DNA of 30,501 nt from Elusimicrobiota bacterium. Its GTDB lineage: Bacteria > Elusimicrobiota > UBA8919. Shown here piece by piece: positions 16,179-30,501 of this stretch (position 1 is its first letter; each line of letters begins with the position of its first letter). Made by a program: the position numbers and the translations under genes. The notes under the pieces are model-generated. The model was not told the DNA's origin. It searched no databases and was given only the letters and a program-made list of their open reading frames with translations. Location: the NCBI GenBank assembly GCA_043816185.1, contig JBDRIG010000079.1:1-30501 (forward strand), written 5' to 3'.

Positions 16179-16215
16179 CAAGAAAGCCCCCGACTTTAGT
16201 CGTGGAGAGTGTCAA
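16179..16215 (+). mobile_element. Solitary IS200/IS605-family right end (hairpin + TCAA)
   Basis: caagaaagcccccgactttagtcgtggagagtgtcaa matches the typical AAGCCCxCGACTTTAGTCGxGG subterminal hairpin, followed by TCAA. No tnpA or tnpB nearby. Confidence 0.65.
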
Positions 16216-16280
16216 TTCAATATAAAGTGGGTTGTTTGGTAGGTATTGTTCGTGTAGTGAAGCGATTAGGAGAAATAAAA

Positions 16281-17264
16281 ATGAACAAGTATAAATTGGT
16301 GCAGATCTGTCTGTGTATATCCGTATTCGTGTTTTATTCGTGTGCAGCTATGTTATGTTCCGAGTCAGAAAGTAGATTTAGTATGGCTCTAACGGACGAA
16401 AAAACAGCGGTGTGTTTGCCAGTTGATGGATGGGATATACAATCGCTCACCTCGGAAAGTGATGAGGAGGGAGAGTACGCTGCTATGTATCTTGATAATA
16501 ATTTTCCTCATCTTTCGTTCTGTAGCAAAAAAGGTGTTGGCTATATGAAATGGACAGGAAATTCGTGGGAGAAACAGTATATTCCCTCTAACGGTGAAAT
16601 ATATAAATTCACATCTATGGTGGTTAGCAATAACTTTCCACATATAGCGTATTACGATTGCACCAACGGTGACTTAAAATATGCTCGATGGACTGGTTCG
16701 TCGTGGGATATTCAGGTAGTCGATTCAATAGGTCAAGTCGGTAAATATACCTCTATTGTGATTGATGACGACAATTTTCCACACATAGCATATCACGATT
16801 GCACCAACGGTGACTTAAAATATGCTCGATGGGCTGGTTCATCGTGGGATATTCAAACAGTTGATTCGATAGGCATAGTTGGTGAGGATACTTCCATAGC
16901 GATTAGTAACAATTTTCCGCATATAGCGTATTACGATACTACTAACGGTGACTTAAAATATGCTCGATGGACTGGTTCGTCGTGGGATATTCAGACGGTC
17001 GATTCAACAGATCAAGTTGGCGAATATACATCAATAGTTGTGGATGCAAATAATTATCCACATATTTCGTACTACGGTAATTCCGATCTTAAATATGCTT
17101 ATTGGTCAGGTTCTGGGTGGAAAATTCAAACTATTGATGCGGAAGGTATTGTTGGGCTTGATACCTTCATAATGTTTGACAAACAAGGACGTCTGCATAT
17201 TTCTTATTACAATTATTCAAAAAAAGTATTAAAATATGCTGTTACTACGCTAAACAGTAAATAA
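16281..17264 (+). CDS. Secreted/lipoprotein with about 45-aa internal repeats (probable beta-propeller)
   Basis: RBS AGGAG before ATG 16281, hydrophobic signal with possible lipobox (FYSC), and repeated PHIAYYDxTNGDLKYARWTGSSWDIQTVDSxGxVGxxTSI units. Confidence 0.75.
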   Translation: MNKYKLVQICLCISVFVFYSCAAMLCSESESRFSMALTDEKTAVCLPVDGWDIQSLTSESDEEGEYAAMYLDNNFPHLSFCSKKGVGYMKWTGNSWEKQYIPSNGEIYKFTSMVVSNNFPHIAYYDCTNGDLKYARWTGSSWDIQVVDSIGQVGKYTSIVIDDDNFPHIAYHDCTNGDLKYARWAGSSWDIQTVDSIGIVGEDTSIAISNNFPHIAYYDTTNGDLKYARWTGSSWDIQTVDSTDQVGEYTSIVVDANNYPHISYYGNSDLKYAYWSGSGWKIQTIDAEGIVGLDTFIMFDKQGRLHISYYNYSKKVLKYAVTTLNSK

Positions 17265-17281: not shown

Positions 17282-18025
17282 ATGGATAATAAATACTTGG
17301 TTATAATTCCCACATATAATGAAAAAGAAAATATTGAAAAAATAATTACGCAAGTGATACAACTGGGTTTTTGTGTGTTAGTTATTGATGACAACTCTTC
17401 CGACGGGACTGGCGAAATTTTAGATAAATTACGAGCTACAAGCTGTTCTTCCAGCCTTGCAAATGCAACACCAAACATTGGAATTTTTAACAAATTACAA
17501 GTCATACATCGTGAAAAAAAATTAGGTCTTGGTACCGCATACATTCGAGGTTTTAAATGGGCATTAGAAGGAGATTTTGATTTTATTTTTACGATGGATG
17601 CCGATTTTTCACATAATCCTCAATACTTTTTAGAATTCATAAAAAAACTGGAAGTTTGTGATTTGGTTGTTGGCTCTAGGTATACAAAAGGTGGGGGCAA
17701 TTCAATGCCTATTCGAAGAAAAATCATATCTCGTCTGGGCAACCTCTATGCAAAAACAATCCTACAAATTCCTATCAGCGATTGCACTTCTGGATTTATG
17801 GGTTTTCGCCGCAAAGTGCTTGAAAAAATAAATCTTGACGAGGTAAAATCTGAGGGATACGGATTTTTAGTAGAAATGAAATACAGGATATATAAACTTG
17901 GCTATAAAATTTTAGAATGTCCAATATTTTTCTCCGACAGAGTGCAAGGTATTTCAAAAATTTCAAAAAATATTATTTGGGAAGCGATTTTTTTAGTGTG
18001 GAAATTAAAGATAAAATATTTATGA
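17282..18025 (+). CDS. Polyprenol monophosphomannose synthase (DPM1-like GT2)
   Basis: IPTYNEKEN, IDDNSSDGT, KLGLGTAY..GF, MDADFSHNP, D.TSGF, SEGYGF..EMK, F.DR..G.SK. Confidence 0.9.
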   Translation: MDNKYLVIIPTYNEKENIEKIITQVIQLGFCVLVIDDNSSDGTGEILDKLRATSCSSSLANATPNIGIFNKLQVIHREKKLGLGTAYIRGFKWALEGDFDFIFTMDADFSHNPQYFLEFIKKLEVCDLVVGSRYTKGGGNSMPIRRKIISRLGNLYAKTILQIPISDCTSGFMGFRRKVLEKINLDEVKSEGYGFLVEMKYRIYKLGYKILECPIFFSDRVQGISKISKNIIWEAIFLVWKLKIKYL

Positions 18026-18111
18026 CGAACAAAAAACGAAAAAATTTGGTAATTGGTGGGACAGAATTTATTCAATTTCTCATAAATCCCATTCCTGATC
18101 GCAGGAGTTGA
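18022..18111 (+). pseudogene. Relic 5' end of an NAD-dependent epimerase gene
   Basis: ATGA-coupled to the upstream stop. MTNKKRKNLVIGGTEFI parallels MSKKKCILVTGGAGFI, then runs into repeat sequence. Confidence 0.5.
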
Positions 18112-18116
18112 ATTAA

Positions 18117-18248
18117 CAGATTGTATCGCAATCCACTTTTTTGTCATTGCGAGATCTTGTCTGTCGTCCCGAGGGAGCGCAGCAACCGAGGGATCCAGTC
18201 TTCGTCGTCCATTCGGGGTTTCTCGCAATAACATTGTGATATAGTTTG
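18117..18248. mobile_element. Degenerate MITE (family B) with nested REP-like palindromes
   Basis: Ends cagattgtatcgcaat...attgtgatatagtttg match the TIR seen at 30388/30489. Inside, tgtcattgcgag(18142)...ctcgcaataaca(18233) encloses tgtcgtcccgagggagcgcagcaaccgagggatcc. Confidence 0.65.
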
Positions 18249-18263
18249 AAGCAGGAGTTTCTA

Positions 18264-19214
18264 ATGTCTAAAAAAAAATGTATATTGGTTACAGGGGGAG
18301 CAGGATTTATTGGTTCAAACATAGCTGATGCATATATTCAGCAAGGCAATAATGTAGTTATTATTGATAATTTATCAACGGGAAAAAAGGAAAATATAAA
18401 CCCAAAAGCAAAATTTTACAACGCAGATATCAAAGACGAAAAAAAGATTAAACAAATATTTGAAAATGAAAAGCCCGATATTGTAAATCATCATGCTGCA
18501 CAGATAGACGTAAGAAAATCTGTTGCTAATCCAATTCTTGACGCACAAATAAATATTATTGGTACTATAAATCTTCTTGAAAATGCTGTTAAATGTAAGA
18601 TAAAAAAATTTATTTTTGCTTCCTCAGGTGGCGTTATGTATGGTGAATGTAAAAAAATTCCTCCGACAGAAAACGAAAAACCCGAGCCACTTTCGCCGTA
18701 CGGAATAACCAAACATACTATCGAGCATTACTTAAATTATTATTCAGAAATACATGGACTAAAATATGTTGCCTTTCGTTATGGCAATGTTTATGGACCG
18801 CGTCAAGATCCACACGGTGAGGCAGGTGTCGTTGCAATTCTCATCAACAGAATTTTATCCAACACAAAAATAAATATTTTTGGCAATGGCGAGCAACTGC
18901 GGGATTATGTTTTTGTTTCCGATATTGCTATTGCCAATTTGATTGCACTTAGAAAAGGAGAAAACGAAATTTTTAATATAGGGACAGGCGAAACAAAATC
19001 TGTTAACCAACTTTTTTGTGAACTTTCGAAAGTAGCAGGATATTTACAAAAGCCCGTCTACAAACCACATAGGGCAGGCGAGTTATTTAAAAGTTCGCTT
19101 AATACAAAAAAGGCAAAAGAAAAACTTGGCTGGTCGGCAAAGATTAAGCTTAACGAGGGTTTAAAGAAAACTTATGAATACTTTAAAACCCGAAACGAAT
19201 ATTTTAAAACCTGA
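18264..19214 (+). CDS. NAD-dependent epimerase (UDP-glucose 4-epimerase-like)
   Basis: VTGGAGFIGS, HHAAQIDVRKSV, ASSGG, SPYGITK, RYGNVYGPRQDPHGEAGVV. Start ATG 18264 after AGGAG. Confidence 0.9.
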   Translation: MSKKKCILVTGGAGFIGSNIADAYIQQGNNVVIIDNLSTGKKENINPKAKFYNADIKDEKKIKQIFENEKPDIVNHHAAQIDVRKSVANPILDAQINIIGTINLLENAVKCKIKKFIFASSGGVMYGECKKIPPTENEKPEPLSPYGITKHTIEHYLNYYSEIHGLKYVAFRYGNVYGPRQDPHGEAGVVAILINRILSNTKINIFGNGEQLRDYVFVSDIAIANLIALRKGENEIFNIGTGETKSVNQLFCELSKVAGYLQKPVYKPHRAGELFKSSLNTKKAKEKLGWSAKIKLNEGLKKTYEYFKTRNEYFKT

Positions 19215-19238
19215 AATAAATACTTTGAAACCCAAATA
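19176..19238. repeat. 21-bp tandem triplication across the epimerase stop codon
   Basis: gaatactttaaaacccgaaac / gaatattttaaaacctgaaat / aaatactttgaaacccaaata. Confidence 0.8.
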
Positions 19239-19333
19239 ACACTATCGAACAAAACACTAAATATAATCGAATAAATATTCAGATAAATTCGATTAAAATT
19301 CGACATTCATTTGTGTGGGAGAGTAGCGACGAT

Positions 19334-20356
19334 ATGAAAGCAATAATTCTAATAGGTGGATTTGGCACACGGCTTAGGCCGTTAACCTGTAGTACTCCAA
19401 AACCGTTACTCCCTGTGCTTAACAAACCATTTTCTTTGTATCAAATAGAACTTCTTAAAAAATATGGAATAAAAGACATAATTCTCTGTATGGCATATTT
19501 ACCGTCGGAATTTAAAAAATATTTTGGTGATGGTAAAAAATTTGGCATAAAAATATTGTATGCGATTGAGAAAACACCTTTAGGGACTGGCGGTGCTATT
19601 AAAAATGCTGAAAAATTTGTGAACGGTTCTGTTATTATTTTTAATGGTGATGTATTGACGGAAATTAATTTGAATAAATTCATACAGTTTCACAAGAAAA
19701 AAAAATCAAAAGCAACAATTTCGCTTGTCAGTGTTCCAGATCCAACAAGTTTTGGTCTTGTTGAGACAGCAAAAAATGGAAGGGTTTTGCAGTTTTTGGA
19801 AAAACCATCACTTAATCAAATTACTTGCGATACTGTTAATGCTGGTACCTACATTTTTGAGCCAGAAATTTTCAAAGAAATGCCATCAAATGTCATTTAT
19901 TCCGTCGAACGAGAACTGTTTCCAACACTGCTAAATAAAAAAATTCCATTTTATGGTTATGCTTATTCTACTTGCTGGATTGATTTTGGAACTACCGAAA
20001 AATATTTACAGATTCATAGTAATTTAATGAATCAAATGAAAAAAAATATTATTGGCAAAAATTCTAAGATAGCAAAAAGTGTAAGAATTTTTGGACATCT
20101 TGTTGTAGGCGATAATGCCAAAATATCTGAGAAAACTACAACCTCTGGTAATGTTTGCTTAGGAAACGGTGTTAGAATTGGTGAGGGTTGTTTTCTTTCC
20201 GATTGCGTTATTTTAGATAAAACAGTAATAGAAGAGGGTGTTAGAATTGAAAAATCAGTTGTTGGTAAAAATTGTGTTGTAGAAAAACATTCGCATCTTA
20301 TGGCAGGTTGTGTTATAGGCGATAAAACAGTAGTAAGAATGTATAGTAAACTATAG
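19334..20356 (+). CDS. NDP-sugar synthase (mannose-1-phosphate guanylyltransferase-like, NTP_transferase + hexapeptide LbH)
   Basis: GGFGTRLRPLT...PKPL, E..PLGTGGA, NGDVL, F.EKP, NAG.Y, W.D.GT and C-terminal hexapeptide repeats. Start ATG 19334. Confidence 0.9.
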   Translation: MKAIILIGGFGTRLRPLTCSTPKPLLPVLNKPFSLYQIELLKKYGIKDIILCMAYLPSEFKKYFGDGKKFGIKILYAIEKTPLGTGGAIKNAEKFVNGSVIIFNGDVLTEINLNKFIQFHKKKKSKATISLVSVPDPTSFGLVETAKNGRVLQFLEKPSLNQITCDTVNAGTYIFEPEIFKEMPSNVIYSVERELFPTLLNKKIPFYGYAYSTCWIDFGTTEKYLQIHSNLMNQMKKNIIGKNSKIAKSVRIFGHLVVGDNAKISEKTTTSGNVCLGNGVRIGEGCFLSDCVILDKTVIEEGVRIEKSVVGKNCVVEKHSHLMAGCVIGDKTVVRMYSKL

Positions 20357-20412
20357 GAGAATGCGGTGAAAACCGATTACAGCGGCAATCCAAAATCGCT
20401 GTCAATGTCAAT

Positions 20413-20790
20413 ATGAAGATTGTCAAAAAACCGTGGGGTAAAGAAACATGGTTTGCTCATACAAAAAAATATGTAGGCAAGTTTCTTTTTATTAAAAAAG
20501 GGCATCGTTTAAGTAGGCAATATCACAAAATAAAACACGAAACAATCTATACCCTGAAAGGCAAGTATATAATGGAGTTATCCTGTCTCGCGAAATCTTC
20601 ACTTCGCTCCGAAAAAATAATGAAAGAAGGTTCTGTGATTGTTATCCCGCCTAAAAAAATCCATAGAATGTATGCAAAATTTTGTGATGTAACGTTGTTG
20701 GAAGTTTCAACGCCAGAAGTTTGGGATGTTGTTCGGCTGGAAGATGATTATGGAAGAACGCAGATAGTCGCAGATAAAAAATGTAGGTAA
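20413..20790 (+). CDS. Cupin, mannose-6-phosphate isomerase-like
   Basis: V.KPWG.E, G.RLS.QYH..K.ET, I.P...HR, EVSTPE..DVVRLEDDYGR. Confidence 0.85.
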   Translation: MKIVKKPWGKETWFAHTKKYVGKFLFIKKGHRLSRQYHKIKHETIYTLKGKYIMELSCLAKSSLRSEKIMKEGSVIVIPPKKIHRMYAKFCDVTLLEVSTPEVWDVVRLEDDYGRTQIVADKKCR

Positions 20791-20799
20791 ACGCAAATT

Positions 20800-20916
20800 G
20801 ATTTTGTAAGGATAGAACCTGATGACTTGCTCTAAGAAGGCAGAACCTGTTTTCTTGGTCTTATTCTTTCCGAGCATTACATATGCGACTTTGTCTACTA
20901 TGTCTATTGCCGTATA
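20800..20916 (-). pseudogene. Fragment of an integrase-core (rve) transposase, IS481-like
   Basis: The minus frame reads YTAIDIVDKVAYVMLGKNKTKKTGSAFLEQVIRFYPYKI, matching the YTAID...K.T....FL......P.KI segment that precedes the TDNG motif. Truncated on both sides. Confidence 0.55.
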
Positions 20917-21055
20917 GAGGCTGTCCGACAACCTACTCCGCTTTACCGACGACACAGCGTCAGTAAAAAATGATGTGTTGTTTGTTGTCATTAGTTGCCA
21001 AATACTGCTATATTTTATAAAAAAATGACTGTTTTACGATTTGTCGGACAGCCTC
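20917..21055. mobile_element. MITE family A, copy 1 (139 bp)
   Basis: Perfect 15-bp TIR GAGGCTGTCCGACAA/TTGTCGGACAGCCTC flanked by TA on both sides. A near-identical inverted copy lies at 30093-30232. Confidence 0.9.
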
Positions 21056-21185
21056 TATCGCTCGCAATGGCTTTTCACGATTTCCTTGCAATTTCGTCGT
21101 TGTTTTCAGTGTCCCATTACATCCTTTTTTTTGTCGTCGTCTCAAAAAACTTTTGCTTTTTCAATGGAGCTAAAATAATCAGCAT

Positions 21186-23003
21186 ATGAAAATTAGTGAT
21201 AATCAGCATATAAAATTCGGTACTGATGGTTGGCGTGGAGTAATTGCAAAGGATTTTACATTTGCAAATATTGAAATAGTTGCCCAAGCGATTGTGGATT
21301 ATATAAAATCAATGTACAACCAAATAGATTCGTCGCAGATGATGTCCGTGGCGCAGATGAAGGGAACGAATAGTGGAAAAAGTTTTAGCCCTACTAGCCC
21401 CACAAGCTCGAAGAATTTTTTATTCTCTACTTCTTGCCCACTATCTCCTGCTGTTATCGTCGGTTATGACAATCGGTTTTTGTCAGAGAAATTTGCGTTG
21501 CATACTGCAAAAGTTATTTTTGCAAACGGAATAGATGTGGCAGTTTCACAATCGGCAGCAACCTCTCCATCAGTTTCATTATACTGTAAAAAAAATAATT
21601 GTTTTGGTATTATGATAACAGCAAGCCACAATCCGCCTACTTGGAATGGTCTAAAAATAAAACTTCAGTATGGCGGTTCCATTTCGGAAAAAATTATTAA
21701 CGAAATTTCTAAATTTCTCCTCGTTCGCCAGAATGCTTCATTATTTACAGTTTGGACGAATGGTGAGAAAAATATTCCCATCAGTCCCGTTTTCGCTGAA
21801 GCAAAAAAATCCACTTGCAAGAACGATGTAAAAATGGACGCTAATAGTGAAACAAAAAGAGCAGATATTCTTAGTGATTACAAAAAATATCTTAAATTAC
21901 TTGTCAAATTAAATTCATCATCAAAAATTAAAATCGCAGTTGATTATATGCATGGAAGTGGTTCTGGTATTTTTGAATCCGTTGCAACAAATTTCAAAAA
22001 GCAAATGATTATTTTACATAGTCGTCGCGAACCACTGTTTAACAATATCAATCCCGAGCCAATAGAAAAAAATCTTACAGAACTAAAAAAAACAGTATTA
22101 GAAAATAAGGTAAATGTGGGTTTTGCTTTTGACGGTGATGCCGATCGCCTTGGTGTTATAGACGATAAGGGCAGATATCTTTCGCCGCACATCGTTTTTC
22201 CTTTGATTTTACTGCATCTTATAGAAGGCAGAAAATTAACAGGAAAAGTTGTTCAGGCGATTTCACTTGGGTATCTTTCTGAAAGAATTGCTAAAAAATT
22301 TGGACTTCCTTTTGAAGAAGTTCCCGTCGGATTTAAGTATGTTTGCGAAAAAATGTTAACTGAAAATGTTCTGCTCGGCGGCGAAGAATCCGGCGGCTAT
22401 GGTTGGAAAAATGGTATACCAGAACGGGACGGTATTCTAAATGCACTTTTAATTACCGAGATGCTTTCACAAACGAAAAAAAAACTTTCGCAGTTAGTTG
22501 ATGATTTACAAAAAAAATTTGGAAAATCATATTATTTAAGAAACGATATAAAACTTTCGGAACCCGTTGACAAACAAAAATTTGTTGAAAACATAGAGGA
22601 AAAAATTCGTCCCGTTCCAGCGATTATATCGCAATGCCATTGCAAAAAAGAAGTCCCAATAAAATCGGAACAACCGACGAGGCAACCTCATGGAAATTAT
22701 TTTGTCAGAGACGAGATTGTCGCAATTCCGCTAAAACAGGATTCGGTAGCAACAGAAAAAAATGGTTCTAACACAACCTCTTCGGCGGGATTAAATTTGC
22801 GACGATTCGGGCTTTCAATAAAAGAAATCAGAACTTATGACGGTATAAAAATAGTTTTTGAAGATGATAACTGGCTTTTACTTCGTCCTTCGGGAACAGA
22901 GCCGATTTTGAGAACATATTCAGAAACAGATTCACCTGTTAAAACAAAAAAATTACTTGATTTTGCTAAAGAAATTTGTTTTACTATAACAAACACAAAA
23001 TAA
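21186..23003 (+). CDS. Phosphoglucomutase/phosphomannomutase with three in-frame insertions
   Basis: FGTDGWRG, VGYD.RF.S, TASHNP, DGDADR, GEESGG and RPSGTEP are all intact. 605 aa versus roughly 460-480 aa typical for the family. Confidence 0.92.
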   Translation: MKISDNQHIKFGTDGWRGVIAKDFTFANIEIVAQAIVDYIKSMYNQIDSSQMMSVAQMKGTNSGKSFSPTSPTSSKNFLFSTSCPLSPAVIVGYDNRFLSEKFALHTAKVIFANGIDVAVSQSAATSPSVSLYCKKNNCFGIMITASHNPPTWNGLKIKLQYGGSISEKIINEISKFLLVRQNASLFTVWTNGEKNIPISPVFAEAKKSTCKNDVKMDANSETKRADILSDYKKYLKLLVKLNSSSKIKIAVDYMHGSGSGIFESVATNFKKQMIILHSRREPLFNNINPEPIEKNLTELKKTVLENKVNVGFAFDGDADRLGVIDDKGRYLSPHIVFPLILLHLIEGRKLTGKVVQAISLGYLSERIAKKFGLPFEEVPVGFKYVCEKMLTENVLLGGEESGGYGWKNGIPERDGILNALLITEMLSQTKKKLSQLVDDLQKKFGKSYYLRNDIKLSEPVDKQKFVENIEEKIRPVPAIISQCHCKKEVPIKSEQPTRQPHGNYFVRDEIVAIPLKQDSVATEKNGSNTTSSAGLNLRRFGLSIKEIRTYDGIKIVFEDDNWLLLRPSGTEPILRTYSETDSPVKTKKLLDFAKEICFTITNTK

Positions 23004-23074
23004 GAGTGAATCTAAAACGCAAAACAGATGCGGGATATTGCACGCACATTTAACGATTATTAGGAGGAGGAAAA

Positions 23075-24271
23075 ATGTTTAGTGGTGATTATGTATTTAG
23101 TTCGGAATCTGTGACAGAGGGGCATCCAGATAAGGTTTGTGATCAAATTTCTGATGCGGTATTGGACGAGGTTTTTAGGCAGGATCCGCCGTTGAAAAAT
23201 AATTTTCAATGTCGAGTTGCCTGTGAGACATACATTACCGTCGGACTTTTAATTGTTGGTGGTGAAATTACTACCAGTGCTTACATTGATGTTCAAAATT
23301 TAGCGCGCGGTGTTATCAAAGAAATCGGCTATACGGACATGAAATATGGTTTTAATTATCAAACCTGCGGCATATTAAATGCAATCGGACGCCAATCGCC
23401 CGATATTTCACAGGGTGTAAGTAGAAAAGGAAAGAAAATAGGTGCAGGTGACCAAGGGCTTATGATTGGATATGCTTGCAATGAGACGGACGAATTGATG
23501 CCACTTCCAATAACGCTTGCCCAAAAACTTACAATGCGACTTGCCGATGTAAGAAAAAAAAATATATTGAAATATATTGGTCCCGACGGTAAATCGCAAA
23601 TTACGGTAAGATATATTAATGGCAAACCTGTTTCGGTTGAAAAAATAGTTATTTCAACACAACATACAGAAGATTCCGTCGACAAAAAAACAGGAAATCT
23701 TGCTGACTGGGCAAGGAAAGATTTAATTGAGACAGTAATACTTCCAACAATCTCCAAAGATCTTCTGAAAAAATTCAATTTCAAAAATGACTGCTATATA
23801 AATCCAACAGGAAGATTTGTGATAGGTGGCCCGCAATCAGATACTGGAATGACTGGCAGAAAAATTATTGTTGATACTTATGGCGGGATGGCACCTCATG
23901 GTGGCGGTGCATTTTCAGGTAAGGATCCAACGAAAGTTGACCGTTCTGCGTGTTATATGGCAAGATATATTGCAAAAAATATCGTTGCAGCAGGTTTAGC
24001 GGAAAAATGCGTAATTCAATTAGCATATGCGATTGGTGTTCCTGATCCAATTTCAATTATGGTTGATTCACTTGGAACTGGTGTAGATGATGCGAAACTT
24101 GAAAAAGCGGTAAGAAGAATATTTCCATTAACACCGAGGGGAATAATCGAAACATTAGAACTTCATAAACCAATTTATCAGAAAACTGCTGCATATGGAC
24201 ATTTTGGGAGAGATGAATTTAGGTGGGAGAAAACAGACAAAGCGTCAATGTTGAAGGAAGCAATATTATAA
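23075..24271 (+). CDS. metK: S-adenosylmethionine synthetase
   Basis: [60 protein letters not shown]. Confidence 0.98.
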
Positions 24272-24370
24272 CTTAGAACAACTGTGATAATAAAGCGATA
24301 TGGTGATAAGGTTTTTTTGTGTGAGTATGTTAGTATATTAGTGATTTTGTTTTTTGTAGCAACATAATAA

Positions 24371-25705
<1,335 letters not shown>

Positions 25706-25753
25706 AAATCAGAGATTGTTGTACAGAAGAATTGTACAAAAAAAGGAGGAGTT

Positions 25754-26428
25754 ATGGATTGGAATATTGTTTTTGTAGAGCCGATTAGGGTTATGTTGGA
25801 AAAGTTTGCCAAGTTTGTTCCAGCCTTTGTGGGTTTTTTGGTGGTTATTGTTGTTGGTTGGTTGGTCGCTGCTGCTGTGAAAAAACTCATTATAAGGGCT
25901 TTGGTTCTATTGAAATTAGACGTTCTTTCAGGAAAAATTAAATTTTCAGAAATGCTTGAAAAAAGTGGCATCAAATATACACTTTCGGAAATAATAGGTG
26001 TTGCTATATACTGGATAATTATTTTTATAACGCTAACAACAGCAATAAATACATTGGGACTTACATCAATTAGTTTAATTACAGATCGTATTATTCTTTT
26101 CATCCCAAATATAATTATTGCCATTTTCGTTTTTGTATTAGGATTATTCCTGTCTTTATTTTTAAGTTCCATAGTCGTTACTATGTCGGTTAATGCCGGA
26201 GTTTCATATGCAAAACTTCTTGGTAAAATCGCATCAGCGACGGTAATTGTATTTTCTACAATGATCGCATTGGAACAATTAAATATTGCCGCTAGTATAA
26301 TTAATGCGGTTATAACAATAGTGTTTGCCTCGATAGGACTTGCTTTTGCGATTGCTTTTGGATTAGGCTCCAAAGATGTCGTTGCCAAAATAATGTCCGA
26401 TGTGGTTGATAAATTAAAGAAAAAATAG
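25754..26428 (+). CDS. Conserved TM-helix repeat membrane protein (CmpX / mechanosensitive-channel TM-like)
   Basis: Two repeats of P.....++...GW.+A, AL.QL.IA and AIAFGLG.KD. RBS GGAGG. Confidence 0.8.
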   Translation: MDWNIVFVEPIRVMLEKFAKFVPAFVGFLVVIVVGWLVAAAVKKLIIRALVLLKLDVLSGKIKFSEMLEKSGIKYTLSEIIGVAIYWIIIFITLTTAINTLGLTSISLITDRIILFIPNIIIAIFVFVLGLFLSLFLSSIVVTMSVNAGVSYAKLLGKIASATVIVFSTMIALEQLNIAASIINAVITIVFASIGLAFAIAFGLGSKDVVAKIMSDVVDKLKKK

Positions 26429-26457
26429 AGTGTGTAAATATAGGTTGTTGTAAAATT

Positions 26458-27696
26458 ATGCATACTGAGATAATTTGTATTGGCTCGGAATTACTTATTG
26501 GTTTTGTAAATACAGACGGAGCATATATTTCGGAAAAACTTGCAACGATTGGACTGAAAGTTAAACGTGCAATTACCGTTGCTGATGATTTTTCAGAACT
26601 TGAAAAAGTATTGTCCGAATCAATAAGTCGTTCCGAGATTATTATCTTAACTGGTGGGCTTGGTCCAACTTTTGACGATATAACCAGAGAAGTTGTTTCA
26701 AAAGTAATCGGTAAAAAACTTATTCTAAATAAAGATGTATTAAAAACAATTTCAGGGTTTTTTGAGAAAGCGAAAATAAAAATGCCAGGAGAAAACAAGA
26801 AACAGGCATATATTCTCGATGGTGCAGAAGTTATTTCTAATACTTTGGGGACAGCTGTTGGCCAAATTTTAGACATAAACAATAAAATTATAATTCTTCT
26901 TCCTGGTCCTCCGAGAGAAATCAAACCGATGTTTGAAACAGCAGTCCTTCCATATCTTAAAGAAAGATTTGAAAAAGGATTATTGAGAATAAAAACTTTA
27001 CATACTGTTGGGCTTGCCGAATCAGTTGTCGATGAGAAAATCAAAAAAATTGTTGATATTGAGAGAGAAAATGAAGAGATTTCTTTTTCTATCCTTGCGA
27101 AACATACCGGTGTTGATATAAAAATTATGGTACAAGGAACCGATGAGATGGGCATAGACAAAACAATTAAAAATTTAAAAATGGAATTTTATGATGTGTT
27201 AAAAGACGTTATTTTTGGCGAGGATAACCAAATTCTTGAAAGTGTTGTTGGTGAACTGTTTCTAAAAAAAAGAAAAACATTATCTGTTGCAGAGAGTTGT
27301 ACTGGTGGGTTGATAATGCATCGTCTTACGAATATTGCTGGGAGTTCAATATATTTTAGGGAAGGAGTTGTAACTTATTCTGATAATAGTAAGAAGCGAA
27401 TATTGGGTGTTAAAGATGAAACGCTTAATAAATATGGGGCAGTTTCAAGCGAAGTAGCGGTAGAAATGGCTAATGGTATAAAAAAAATGTCGGCGACAAA
27501 TTTCGGTCTTTCAATAACTGGCATTGCTGGCCCAAAACTGTCGTCTACAGGTAAACCAACCGGTCTTGTTTTTATTGCACTTGCTACTGATACTGAAACG
27601 AAGGTTCAACAATTTAATTTTATAGGTTCGAGAGTAGAAATCAAAGATAAGGTTGCAGTTAGTGCCCTTGATATTTTAAGGAAAAGTTTGATGTAA
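26458..27696 (+). CDS. cinA: Competence/damage-inducible protein A (MoCF + PncC domains)
   Basis: EII.IG.ELL.G, TGGLGPT.DD.TRE, LPGPPRE, AESCTGG, GAVS.EVA.EMA, TGIAGP. Confidence 0.93.
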   Translation: MHTEIICIGSELLIGFVNTDGAYISEKLATIGLKVKRAITVADDFSELEKVLSESISRSEIIILTGGLGPTFDDITREVVSKVIGKKLILNKDVLKTISGFFEKAKIKMPGENKKQAYILDGAEVISNTLGTAVGQILDINNKIIILLPGPPREIKPMFETAVLPYLKERFEKGLLRIKTLHTVGLAESVVDEKIKKIVDIERENEEISFSILAKHTGVDIKIMVQGTDEMGIDKTIKNLKMEFYDVLKDVIFGEDNQILESVVGELFLKKRKTLSVAESCTGGLIMHRLTNIAGSSIYFREGVVTYSDNSKKRILGVKDETLNKYGAVSSEVAVEMANGIKKMSATNFGLSITGIAGPKLSSTGKPTGLVFIALATDTETKVQQFNFIGSRVEIKDKVAVSALDILRKSLM

Positions 27697-27778
27697 TAGA
27701 AAATTTGGATATGGTTTGCTCATTACTTGGTTATTACAATATATTCGAAATTGCTTAAACACGGCAGGTGAAATTACA

Positions 27779-28180
27779 TTGTCTATTCTTGCAATTGATT
27801 ATGGAAAAAAGCGAATAGGGGTTGCAGTTTCATCAACATTTATAGCAACACCCCTTGAACCAATTTTGAAAGATTTAGATAAAGATGTGTTTGCAAAGAT
27901 TTCTAAAATTATAAAAGAGTATTCTGTTTGCGAAATAGTAATTGGTTTACCTGTTAATATAGATGATACTGAAAATGAAATGACAAAAGAGGTGCGGAGT
28001 TTTGCTTGTGAAATTGAAAGAAAATTACAAATTAAAGTTAATTTTGTTGATGAGCGTTTGACGTCACTGGATGCAGAATCTAAATTAGCATTGTTTGAAA
28101 AAAATTGGCGTAAAAGAAAGAAAAAAATTGATAGTGCTGCTGCGTGTCTTATTTTGCAAAATTATATAGAGAAAAAATGA
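27779..28180 (+). CDS. ruvX: Holliday junction resolvase-like / pre-16S rRNA nuclease (YqgF)
   Basis: ILAIDYGKKRIGVAVS, VIGLP, VDERLTS, ID..AA..ILQ. Start set at TTG 27779 after AGGTG. Confidence 0.9.
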   Translation: MSILAIDYGKKRIGVAVSSTFIATPLEPILKDLDKDVFAKISKIIKEYSVCEIVIGLPVNIDDTENEMTKEVRSFACEIERKLQIKVNFVDERLTSLDAESKLALFEKNWRKRKKKIDSAAACLILQNYIEKK

Positions 28181-29115
28181 TAATAGAAAATAAAAAAACA
28201 ATTATTATTGTTGCTGTGATAGTGGTGATTTTGTCTTTACTTTTTGCATCTGATAAAAAAGAGGTTTTTGTAAAAATTCAAAATGGTTCGACACCGAAAC
28301 AAGTTGCAAAAATCTTAAAAAATGAAAAAATAATAAAAAGTAGAGATGCGTTTTTAACACTTGTTTGGCTTACGAGAACTGAAAAAAAATTCAAACCAGG
28401 AACATACAGACTTAATACAAATATGATGTCGCACACCGTTTTATACAAGATAGTAAAAGGTAATACTTATAAAATAAAGCTTACAATTCCAGAAGGATTT
28501 TCTGCAAAAGAAATCGCAGAACTTTTAGAGAAAAAAGGTGTATGTAATAATAAAAAATTTTTAGAGATTGTAAAAAATGAAAAATTGGAAGGTTATCTTT
28601 TCCCTGAGACATATTTTTTCGAACCAAATTCTTCCGAGAAAGAAATAATACAAATGCTCAAAAATCAATTTGAAAAAAATTTTAGTAATAATTTTGTAAA
28701 AAGGGCAGATGAACTTAAAATGTCGAGGGAGAAAATTGTAATACTTGCATCAATCATAGAGAAAGAGGCAAAAAAAGACGAAGAGAGACCACTTATAGCT
28801 GCTGTATTTCATAATCGTCTTAAAAAGGGATGGAATCTCGAATCCTGTGCTACCGTCTTATATGCACGAGGATCGCATGTAAATTTTTTGACATACAAGG
28901 ATCTAAAAATCGCTTCCCCATTTAATACATACATTCATTCAGGTTTACCGCCTACTCCGATTTGTAGTCCTGGAATTGCTTCTATAAAAGCGGCATTGTA
29001 TTCTGCTGAAACCTCTGATATGTTTTTTGTCGCAGATGGTTCTGGTACCCACAAATTTTCAAAATATATAGAAGAGCACATAAAAAATAAAAATTTAAAA
29101 AAAAGAAAGTTGTGA
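28177..29115 (+). CDS. mltG: Endolytic transglycosylase MltG (YceG)
   Basis: TIPEG, LEGYLFPETY, LASIIEKEA, A.VF.NRL, SPFNTY...GLPPTPI.SPG. ATGA overlap with ruvX. Confidence 0.93.
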   Translation: MIIENKKTIIIVAVIVVILSLLFASDKKEVFVKIQNGSTPKQVAKILKNEKIIKSRDAFLTLVWLTRTEKKFKPGTYRLNTNMMSHTVLYKIVKGNTYKIKLTIPEGFSAKEIAELLEKKGVCNNKKFLEIVKNEKLEGYLFPETYFFEPNSSEKEIIQMLKNQFEKNFSNNFVKRADELKMSREKIVILASIIEKEAKKDEERPLIAAVFHNRLKKGWNLESCATVLYARGSHVNFLTYKDLKIASPFNTYIHSGLPPTPICSPGIASIKAALYSAETSDMFFVADGSGTHKFSKYIEEHIKNKNLKKRKL

Positions 29116-29157
29116 ATCGTGGCTCGTGAATTGTGCATCGGAGTTATGAGTTCATAG
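29109..29157. repeat. Degenerate heptamer tandem repeat
   Basis: gttgtga-atcgtgg-ctcgtga-attgtgc-atcggag-ttatgag-ttcatag. Confidence 0.55.
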
Positions 29158-29184
29158 TTTGCTTCTCGTATCTGGTGATTATAT

Positions 29185-30000
29185 ATGCTTAACAGAATTT
29201 TTATTGCTTTAATTTTGATTCCAGTCGTTTTTATTGCCGTATATCTTGGCTATATTCCGTTTCTTATTTTTATCTGCGGAATTTGTTTTCTTGCAGCATT
29301 TGAATTCTGGCAATTGGTCTCAAAAATGGGATTTGTTCCTCGGAAAATATTTGGGAATGTATCTATATTTTTGATGCTCATTTCAATATTTTTTAATGGT
29401 TCCAAAATTGCCTTCACTGTTTCCAACGAAGTAACATCTCTTATTTTTACACTTGCGTTTTTACTCCTTTTTGTTTATGAAATAATTAAATATGATATTC
29501 GCACAGCACTTCCGTCGTTGGCTATTACATTTCTTGGAATTATTTATCTCGGCTGGCTTCCAGGACATTTTTTGCTTTTAAGAGATTTTTGCCCAGATGG
29601 CTTTAAATTTACCATACTTCTTCTCGTAAGTGTTTGGGTTGCAGATTCTGCAGCGTATTTTTTCGGCTCAGCATATGGGAGTAGGCAGCTTACTACAATC
29701 AGTCCAAAAAAAACCGTAGAAGGGGCTATTGCATCCGTTTTTGCGTCAGTAATTGTAATTTTTTTTGCAAAATTATTTTTTATAAAATTTTTAGAACCAA
29801 CAGATGTTTTTTTACTTGGTGTTTTAATAAGCATCTCGGCACAATTTGGTGACCTCGCAGAGTCGTTAATAAAACGCTCGGCAGGAGTAAAAGACTCGTC
29901 TAACATACTTAAAAATCACGGTGGTATTTTGGATAAGCTTGATAGTTTCGTTTTTGCTGCTCCAATTTTTTACTATTACATAAAATTCTTCGTTCTATAA
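29185..30000 (+). CDS. cdsA: Phosphatidate cytidylyltransferase
   Basis: W..DS.AYF.G, ISPKKT.EG, GDL.ES.IKR..GVKDS......HGGILD.LDS. Confidence 0.95.
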   Translation: MLNRIFIALILIPVVFIAVYLGYIPFLIFICGICFLAAFEFWQLVSKMGFVPRKIFGNVSIFLMLISIFFNGSKIAFTVSNEVTSLIFTLAFLLLFVYEIIKYDIRTALPSLAITFLGIIYLGWLPGHFLLLRDFCPDGFKFTILLLVSVWVADSAAYFFGSAYGSRQLTTISPKKTVEGAIASVFASVIVIFFAKLFFIKFLEPTDVFLLGVLISISAQFGDLAESLIKRSAGVKDSSNILKNHGGILDKLDSFVFAAPIFYYYIKFFVL

Positions 30001-30075
30001 TATTGGGTTTCATGTTGAGATTGTTGAAAATGCAATTCAAGGCGTCGCTATAACACAGTGTCGTTGCAACAAATT

Positions 30076-30387
30076 ATTGCGAGAGCCCGCATGAGGCTGT
30101 CCGACAAATCGTAAAACAGTCATTTTTTTATAAAATATAGCAGCATTTGGCAACTAATAACAACAAACAACACATCATTTTTTTACTGACGTTGTGTCGT
30201 CGGTAAAGCGGATTATGTTGTCGGACAGCCTCATGACTCGTGGCAATCTCGCCTGTCATCCCGAGGAAGCGTAGCGACTGAGGGATCTCTTCCAGTCGAA
30301 ACAGAGAGATCTCTCCTTCCAGTCGAGATGACAAGCAGGGGCGAGACACGACGGAACAACCGAGATTGCTTCGCTTCGTTCGCCAAT
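30076..30387. repeat. Cluster of nested REP-like palindromes
   Basis: attgcgagag...cgtggcaatctc (split by MITE A); tgtcatcccgaggaagcgtagcgactgagggatctc...gagatc...tcgagatgaca (30254-30333); gagattgcttcgcttcgttcgc (30362-30383). Confidence 0.75.
30093..30232. mobile_element. MITE family A, copy 2 (140 bp, opposite orientation)
   Basis: Same 15-bp TIR, flanked by AT on both sides. By manual alignment it differs from copy 1 by 5 substitutions and a 1-bp indel. Confidence 0.9.
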
Positions 30388-30501
30388 CAGACTGTGTCGC
30401 AATCCATCTTTTACCATCTAGTGTTGGATTGCAGTACCATATTTTATCATCAGTTGCTATCTTCTATAAAAATGCAACTTTTTAGCTCATTGCGACACAG
30501 T
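30388..30501. mobile_element. MITE family B (right end runs to the window edge)
   Basis: ACTGTGTCGCAAT (30391-30403) and ATTGCGACACAGT (30489-30501) form a perfect 13-bp inverted repeat around a non-coding interior. Confidence 0.7.

Follow-up and report, generated by a model that had tools for sequence, protein, structure and literature searches.

The DNA analyzed here (the window) is the 30,501-nucleotide contig JBDRIG010000079.1 (C79) of an uncultured Elusimicrobiota bacterium (GCA_043816185.1; hereafter G000), whose genome is a single metagenome assembly of 1.44 Mb in 112 contigs with 34% G+C and 94% completeness. Core enzymes encoded in the window carry in-frame inserts. Across the family, the same loops are filled by unrelated classes of repeat, namely a GTC-tagged palindrome, arrays of 7-nucleotide units (heptamers), spaced repeats and small hairpins, which in part overwrite existing coding sequence at equal length; one repeat-derived peptide, in AhcY, bears a signal of selection. 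We did not find this combination in the literature. We consider it probable, if modestly so, that the inserts are gene-less remnants of repeat-flanked cassettes that landed in coding DNA.

The palindrome unit comprises a GTC tag, a stem ATTGC...GCAAT, an inner hairpin that varies and a CTC tail, and is frequently arranged in head-to-head pairs. The sequence GTCATTGCGAG occurs 146 times in G000 with at most one mismatch and 14 times in the window with at most two, where 100 shuffles averaged 4.95 and reached 11 at most. As the original prediction had proposed, the genome was scanned with a model of intergenic copies (n = 52, from other contigs; hereafter the broad model). At a threshold of at least 12 bits, 179 matches were obtained, with 166 outside long open reading frames (ORFs) and 13 (~7%) inside ORFs of at least 150 aa, where three codon-shuffled sets gave 0; several of the 13 lie near the ORF start, perhaps upstream of the true start. 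When this model was combined with a subfamily model, built from four intergenic copies on other contigs that were picked after the AhcY copy of the relative G001 had been seen, palindromes were located in the interior of 6 of 995 genes (ValS, RsmE, PGM, AhcY, an SDR enzyme and ThrC) and in none in five codon shuffles. Among 41 genomes of the phylum, 20 contain the exact palindrome pattern, and so do all ten family relatives, with 0 matches in the controls. In the ValS gene (L218, contig C7), aa 447-496 correspond to a tandem duplication of a 61-nt unit made of a GTAG-type hairpin and the palindrome; the duplicated units fall in different reading frames, and the gene remains open.

The clearest in-gene copy in the window is an insert of 22 codons in AhcY (aa 370-391; 25493..25558; all in-gene features of the window described here are on the + strand), in which a palindrome half (25506-25551) is nested in a spaced CGCAGAT-type repeat. 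The insert is common to G001, and orthologues of G004 and G007 have the site empty. To gauge such similarities, 11 segments were compared by BLAST with intergenic DNA and scored against 100 coding controls each of the same length. The AhcY insert is identical to an intergenic copy at 35 of 44 positions, and no control scored as high, by a narrow distance (26 vs a control maximum of 25); it alone among the 11 segments was supported. Under the subfamily model it reaches 28.3 bits (E 2.3e-6), the best score in ten codon-shuffled proteome sets being 10.4 bits. The third insert of the phosphoglucomutase/phosphomannomutase (PGM/PMM; aa 476-543; 22611..22814) holds a decayed palindrome half at 22635-22689, which scores 16.2 bits (E 0.014) under the same model, and a more decayed mirror half downstream. 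The broad model detected neither in-gene copy and the PGM segment did not pass the BLAST comparison (49 of 100 controls as high), so judged by sequence the AhcY insert is firmly assigned as a palindrome copy and PGM insert 3 only as a probable, decayed one. The prediction of decayed copies in two ORFs thus stands clearly for AhcY and probably for PGM. The reading CHC, which it noted in both, is not a rule, in-gene copies occurring in all three sense frames; a preferred CHC frame was likewise rejected, with 33 of 52 intergenic halves open in that frame vs 48 and 42 in the other two.

The genes that host the inserts are constrained. Between G000 and G001, the proportion of differing sites is far lower for non-synonymous (pN) than for synonymous (pS) sites on both sides of the inserts, as in the PGM domain after insert 3 (pN 0.10, pS 0.41). 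Of the sites within the AhcY insert itself, 7 of the 15 synonymous ones are changed and 7 of the 57 non-synonymous ones (Fisher p 0.0065), corresponding to a dN/dS of ~0.19 compared with 0.065 for the AhcY core. For this one pair of 24 codons at least, purifying selection appears to have acted on the inserted peptide since G000 and G001 diverged. The in-gene copies fold no better than their shuffles (z -0.45 for AhcY and -0.7 for PGM insert 3), as would fit constraint acting on the peptide instead of the hairpin. The six window inserts are free of stops, with a joint probability of 1.2e-5 in base shuffles, a figure to be read with the fact that the inserts were chosen as parts of open frames. 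The G001 palindrome in AhcY is close to the present consensus even though about half of the synonymous sites have changed between G000 and G001 (dS ~0.9); this hints at refreshing by gene conversion, with few changes to go by.

Alignment of the window genes with orthologues from up to 12 relatives (13 genomes including G000, with G011 as an order-level relative) revealed that position 370 of AhcY has been filled in several ways. The palindrome is found there in G000 and G001, three different heptamer arrays in G002, G006 and G008, and two different hairpins in G003 and G010; as an alignment with relatives had been expected to reveal, empty alleles exist, in G004, G005, G007 and G011. Outside the family, where 35 of 76 AhcY loci were aligned, the loop comprises 17 residues in 34 homologues and 18 in one, whereas within the family it ranges from 17 to 39 residues in ten genomes, with six unrelated fillings. 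Similarly varied fillings occupy shared sites in ValS, the SDR enzyme, DapF, RsmE, RnfC and HisH, and the alignments of AhcY, PGM, ValS, SDR, DapF, RsmE and RnfC contain both in-frame copies and orthologues with empty sites. In DapF, palindrome variants begin at one and the same codon in four of six genomes. Elements are nested in AhcY, RsmE, ValS and the DPM-like enzyme: the G001 AhcY palindrome lies inside a spaced CGCAGAT repeat, and RsmE hairpins lie inside a repeat of the same kind. The view that core enzymes carry in-frame copies of several repeat families in their loops, and that relatives with the sites empty exist, is borne out.

Heptamer arrays are a feature of genes in G000, with 22 in genes (0 in shuffled sequence) and 3 between genes. 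Seven is the favored period: the counts for periods 5, 8, 10, 11 and 13 are 0, 6, 0, 1 and 0. Arrays in gene interiors were found in 15 of 995 genes and in none in each of five codon shuffles. A survey of 14 aligned genes located 28 arrays on 12 sites, six of which are used in at least two genomes. When array-bearing alleles were compared in length with the shortest array-free allele (27 arrays, the row of G017 AhcY having been dropped for its truncated frame), 12 differed by +1 to -2 residues and 15 added at least five. Three different units of equal length overall occupy HisH, and in AhcY of G000 a four-unit GTTCACG-type array (24782..24809) replaces the usual segment with the length unchanged, as also in G006; the G000 array was recognized by eye and that of G006 was scored. 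With so many arrays replacing coding sequence at equal length, a model of pure insertion, as originally envisaged, is not supported. In PGM of G003, G005, G006, G008, G009 and G010, a purine-rich run is followed by a mirror pyrimidine-rich run, the layout of the cassette arms described below. The reading frame is preserved throughout the window as had been claimed, but not everywhere in the genome: a second PGM/PMM gene (L328, G000:C70:28039-29561) is frameshifted at an ATTACAG array that is 7 nt, or one unit, shorter than in the in-frame G001 allele. This may be a real slip or frame switch, or an assembly collapse.

The remaining inserts of the window are true in-frame inserts by the same alignments, with empty sites in relatives. 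The DPM-like polyprenol-phosphate mannose synthase, a glycosyltransferase, has one of ~15 codons (17441..17488) whose origin is not recognizable in G000; here the G001 gene contains a palindrome copy that is nearly perfect, and the G003 gene a hairpin. The cupin insert, 7 codons long (20581..20601), is common to G001, where it has 8 codons and forms a clearer hairpin, and is absent from the 11 other genomes. In PGM, the decayed insert 1 (aa 44-84; 21315..21437) marks a hot spot of the family, with detectable heptamer arrays of differing units in 6 of 13 genomes, and insert 2 (aa 180-211; 21723..21818), an imperfect inverted repeat of an unrecognized family, is found in G000 only among the 13. 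Two MetK loops that had also been taken for repeat inserts were rejected: they are common across the family and in the order-level relative G011, the first being present in 11 of 12 relatives and the second showing no gap block, and 54 and 70 of 100 controls scored as high. The further inserts originally proposed are real for DPM, the cupin and PGM (inserts 1 and 2), without a significant repeat match.

In structure models, every scored insert falls between secondary-structure elements. The only AhcY segment with a predicted local distance difference test score (pLDDT) below 50 is 373-392; in PGM such segments are 1-6, 61-84, 189-200, 206-212 and 479-534. Regions for which the alignment offers no rows are expected to have a low pLDDT, so the values are no proof of disorder. 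The PGM motifs that we take to bind phosphate, sugar and metal and to hold the phosphoserine are invariant, in agreement with the claim that the inserts avoid catalytic motifs.

The original prediction located no mobilizing enzyme in the window, where we too found no candidate gene, and pointed to a palindrome-flanked nuclease or transposase elsewhere. Such a gene was found in relatives and not in G000. All ten family relatives encode GIY-YIG proteins and four-helix-bundle proteins and seven of ten encode GxxExxY proteins; of the matches listed, we examined 24 of 48 for GIY-YIG and 60 of 86 for PF05635. Of the 24 short GIY-YIG genes, six group as a single clade (support 1.0). Each of the six is accompanied, as judged by eye, by GTCAT-tagged palindromes, and three score at least 12 bits under the G000 model. 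At L069, L072 and L078, a palindrome of the G000 type lies in inverted orientation on both sides of the nuclease gene, and three further Ssn-like genes (G017, G030) have the exact palindrome pattern at most 90 bases away. The L078 protein has 6233 homologues among the matches listed at E up to 1e-20, the best being mostly ~95 residues long. With the product of an unannotated Neisseria gonorrhoeae gene that has 12 NTS matches around it and by these features would be ssnA, it shares 41% identity over 94 aa (E 2e-28); an NCBIfam scan of the Ssn-like protein returned a weak unrelated match only. The relatives' genes encode single-domain GIY-YIG proteins of ~95 aa matching this presumed SsnA at E <1e-10 over >75%, and stay below the stricter 60% threshold of PMC11893778. 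From this homology we infer that the 95-residue protein is an Ssn-like single-strand DNA nuclease. The four-helix-bundle and GxxExxY genes of relatives have, by eye, mirror-image arms of heptamer or spaced repeats.

Other short GIY-YIG genes occupy different settings. Those at L067, L070, L076, L079 and L085 lie between a partial and a full copy of a tRNA gene, and some of these loci carry small CCGCC..GGCGG hairpins like those in gene inserts. A further group (L071, L086) is bounded by CCCCGT.AGA-type inverted repeats, and RsmE of G010 (L257) has an empty repeat pair of that type sitting in frame. A partner of the REP-associated tyrosine transposase (RAYT) type, where REP denotes a repetitive extragenic palindrome, was considered and discarded: the flanks of the three Y1 genes of G000 (110 bases each side) hold GTAG-type repeats or none, and not this palindrome.

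In the explanation we favor, the palindrome would be an arm of a cassette carrying the Ssn-like nuclease, as the association in relatives suggests, and the 7-nt arrays and spaced CGCAGAT repeats would correspond to arms of four-helix-bundle and GxxExxY cassettes, a likeness judged by eye. Such arms would act as donors: short single-stranded repeat-bearing pieces, cut out or copied, might be pasted at microhomologies during replication or repair, in the manner of double illegitimate recombination of short patches (SPDIR), and the pasting would either add sequence or overwrite it. We know of no repeat-donor bias for that route. A loop already holding a repeat would be hit again, presumably by attraction, giving nested and replaced inserts at the same codons, and remnants would survive only if the reading frame remained open and the protein could bear the insert. 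The in-gene copies of G000 would then be old, decaying as DNA and translated. Spread of the palindrome by an Ssn-like nuclease acting in trans, as had been predicted in general form, would fit the association in relatives, which does not show it; the gene was found neither in G000 nor in three repeat-rich relatives. A bolder version strikes us as possible but on balance doubtful: that single-stranded fragments of nuclease and four-helix-bundle cassettes repeatedly overwrite essential enzymes at the same loops and helix ends, and do not just insert there, throughout the family, sampling new peptides at fixed protein positions, of which some, as in AhcY, become conserved, with heptamer arrays as frame switches and the Ssn clade as the missing mobilizer of repeats of the RPE-4/6/7 type (Rickettsia palindromic elements, RPEs) and the CGTC type.

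Several observations weigh against the cassette explanation. Four of the six window inserts have no significant repeat match (91, 73, 77 and 17 of 100 controls scored as high for DPM, the cupin and PGM inserts 1 and 2), and the selection test is one of a single pair of 24 codons. G000, at 94% completeness, has no match to GIY-YIG, four-helix-bundle or GxxExxY proteins (PF01541, PF05635, PF13366) or to the Ssn-like protein; a motif search for UvrC in G000 was also blank, so the assembly may lack genes. The Ssn-like gene was found in only 4 of 10 family relatives and not in G001, G006 and G008, which have 90, 44 and 93 matches to the palindrome pattern, and four genomes with the gene have zero matches to it. 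The published SRM pattern has 2 exact matches in G000 vs 1-4 in five shuffles, and one of six clade loci matches it; in the passages concerned, PMC11893778 reports cutting by Ssn, not mobilization. A strict array lies within 250 bases of the four-helix-bundle gene in only 18 of 60 cases examined, and neither GxxExxY-type arms nor GC hairpins are enriched in gene interiors of G000.

A rival account, less probable in our judgment but deserving serious attention, combines two processes: the palindromes would be mobile REP-like elements, whereas the heptamers would arise in place by slippage or template switching with a 7-base bias and no donor, the shared sites being loops that tolerate change. 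It would explain why units differ between genomes and seldom match local cassette arms (2 of 22 in-gene units match four-helix-bundle arms of the same genome, permutation p 0.16, which also speaks against our explanation), why nearly half of the arrays are length-neutral or shorter and most G000 arrays lie within genes, and why one unit was lost in the C70 gene, as slippage does. It is less easily squared with the cassette-arm layout of several in-gene arrays, a purine-rich run with its mirror pyrimidine-rich run, with the 6 of 22 units that match some arm of the family although the arms cover only 22 of 1172 unit classes, or with the constant length of the AhcY loop outside the family. That each hot spot goes back to one ancestral insertion, which gene conversion with the current repeats of the genome later rewrote and which some lineages lost (a proposal made for RPE-4/6/7 of Rickettsia in PMC3767692), we regard as improbable. 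The common starting codon in DapF and the nearly consensus AhcY copy of G001 speak for it; against it stand the unrelated classes that fill one site and the interleaving on the tree of empty alleles of outgroup length (G005 within the filled clade, G004 and G007), though the deep branches are weakly supported (22-57). Hardly any weight falls on the idea that the inserts are assembly artefacts or the genes decaying pseudogenes: G000 is a single metagenome assembly and the C70 frameshift could be a collapse, but the AhcY and cupin inserts recur in an independent genome with mostly synonymous differences, pN is far below pS in the host genes, and the stop-free inserts, though chosen as parts of open frames, would rarely be met by chance.

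The intergenic copies of the palindrome predicted for the window are present at 18143, 21061-21071, 30073-30083 and 30361-30377, the last three interrupted or bordered by miniature transposable elements with inverted repeats (MITEs). The first belongs to a composite palindrome (18140..18234, no strand assigned; fold z -2.1) in which outer arms of the GTCATTGCGAG family enclose a second GTC-tagged hairpin. MITE A (~140 bp with terminal inverted repeats; 20917..21055, no strand assigned) abuts the palindrome half at 21058-21071, and its second copy (30093-30232) splits another half (30073..30251, + strand). A second GTC-tagged palindrome pair follows, ending in a mirror half of the main family at 30361-30385 (30252..30385, no strand assigned), and then MITE D (~118 bp; 30386..30501, likewise), cut off by the contig end. 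MITE A has 27 near-full-length copies in the genome (median identity 95%) and MITE D 77 (96%); the palindrome motif lies within 45 bases of 34 of 56 complete MITE D copies, compared with 16.5% of random intergenic points. Both MITEs are young, with the palindrome as a favored landing site. No long element combining MITE ends with a transposase was seen in G000.

From 17282 the window encodes the DPM-like family-2 glycosyltransferase, an epimerase, a nucleotidyltransferase, the cupin, PGM/PMM, MetK and AhcY, followed by a channel-like protein, CinA, RuvX, MltG and CdsA. The 3' end of the cupin gene carries a spaced CGCAGAT repeat (20758..20775) of the type found upstream of GxxExxY genes in relatives, and a spaced ATCAGCAT repeat of the mirror type of GxxExxY arm spans the PGM start (21178..21209); both were recognized by eye and were not significant in the BLAST comparison. 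A GxxExxY gene was expected between cupin and PGM in relatives, but none of the 12 has one, only arms. In the family, most junctions of the run from epimerase through nucleotidyltransferase, cupin, PGM and MetK to AhcY (L041-L053) contain mirror-image pairs of spaced or heptamer repeats with no gene between them; directly before MetK, G017 has a GxxExxY-like gene. The intergenic stretch 20790-20916, 127 nt long, is unique and not present in the cupin-PGM junctions of relatives. At 16209-17264 lies a gene for a secreted-looking protein with internal repeats of ~46 residues (period 138-141 nt), with a weak DUF7253 match only.

Coding palindromes are also found in Methanocaldococcus, and small dispersed repeats in cyanobacteria, reportedly described by Elhai in 2008, may bear on novelty. 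In-frame palindromes are known from Rickettsia (PMC10969869, PMC3767692), where different RPE-4/6/7 groups occupy one site in orthologues, with a hot spot or common origin left open (PMC3767692). Such coding invasion is not confined to that genus, as had been supposed, since intragenic GTAG and CGTC REPs are described in Opitutus, Thauera, Xanthomonas and others (PMC3733652). The palindrome resembles both RPE-4/-6/-7 and CGTC-REPs in its GTC tag, ATT..AAT stem ends and head-to-head pairs, and in occurring in frame within exposed loops of core proteins that are unrelated, with differing variants per orthologue site (PMC3733652, PMC3767692). It departs from both in its variable internal loop hairpin, in the unrelated heptamers and hairpins found in the same loops, in having ~7% of copies in long ORFs, and in a host that is an uncultured Elusimicrobiota bacterium and not an intracellular alphaproteobacterium. 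CGTC-REPs are described with a CGTC or TGTC tag, a stem of 8-9 bp starting with paired A and T, and head-to-head dimers (PMC3733652); tag, stem ends and dimers recur here, whereas the loops are longer and more varied than the described 4-5 bases. The RPE4 peptide model TIGR03777 had no match in six peptides or five genomes, and gave none in control genomes either.

Ssn proteins cut single-stranded DNA beside their own repeat, and their mobile-element-like layout has been remarked on (PMC11893778); in 10.64898/2026.09.22.753630, SsnA loci serve merely as a benchmark in the passages concerned. The likeness lies in a GIY-YIG gene for ~95 residues flanked on both sides by inverted GTC-tagged hairpins, and the differences in a repeat off the SRM pattern, a gene not found in G000, and in-frame copies, which those passages of PMC11893778 do not treat. 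Heptanucleotide tandem repeats, partly intragenic, are known from bacteria (PMC4679880, PMC4692102). They and the PF05635 cassettes share with the present arrays three to five 7-nt units, often in mirror pairs; recurrence in the same core-enzyme loops with differing units, often as equal-length replacement, sets the present arrays apart, the PF05635 link coming from our own alignments. SPDIR, a rare mutation route in Acinetobacter baylyi in which fragments of single-stranded DNA pair at microhomologies and take the place of short stretches of the chromosome (bioRxiv 10.1101/2023.11.22.568220), would give overwriting of the same or nearly the same length, by analogy only.

A literature search that covered few subscription papers returned no paper that reports such inserts from Elusimicrobiota, overwriting by heptamers at unchanged length, or mobilization of in-frame palindromes by Ssn. 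The sources cited (PMC3733652, PMC11893778) do not settle by what means RPE-type and CGTC-tagged repeats spread, and no dedicated transposase was found for CGTC-tagged REPs in the parts of PMC3733652 concerned. Unexplained low-complexity loops in proteins of such genomes are often repeat relics. Unlike Rickettsia, this Elusimicrobiota family offers empty alleles, unrelated fillings at a single codon position, nuclease cassettes that are intact and have the same arms, and a repeat-derived peptide with a selection signal, so that both the question of the mobilizer and the birth of protein segments from non-coding repeats become testable by ordinary biochemistry.

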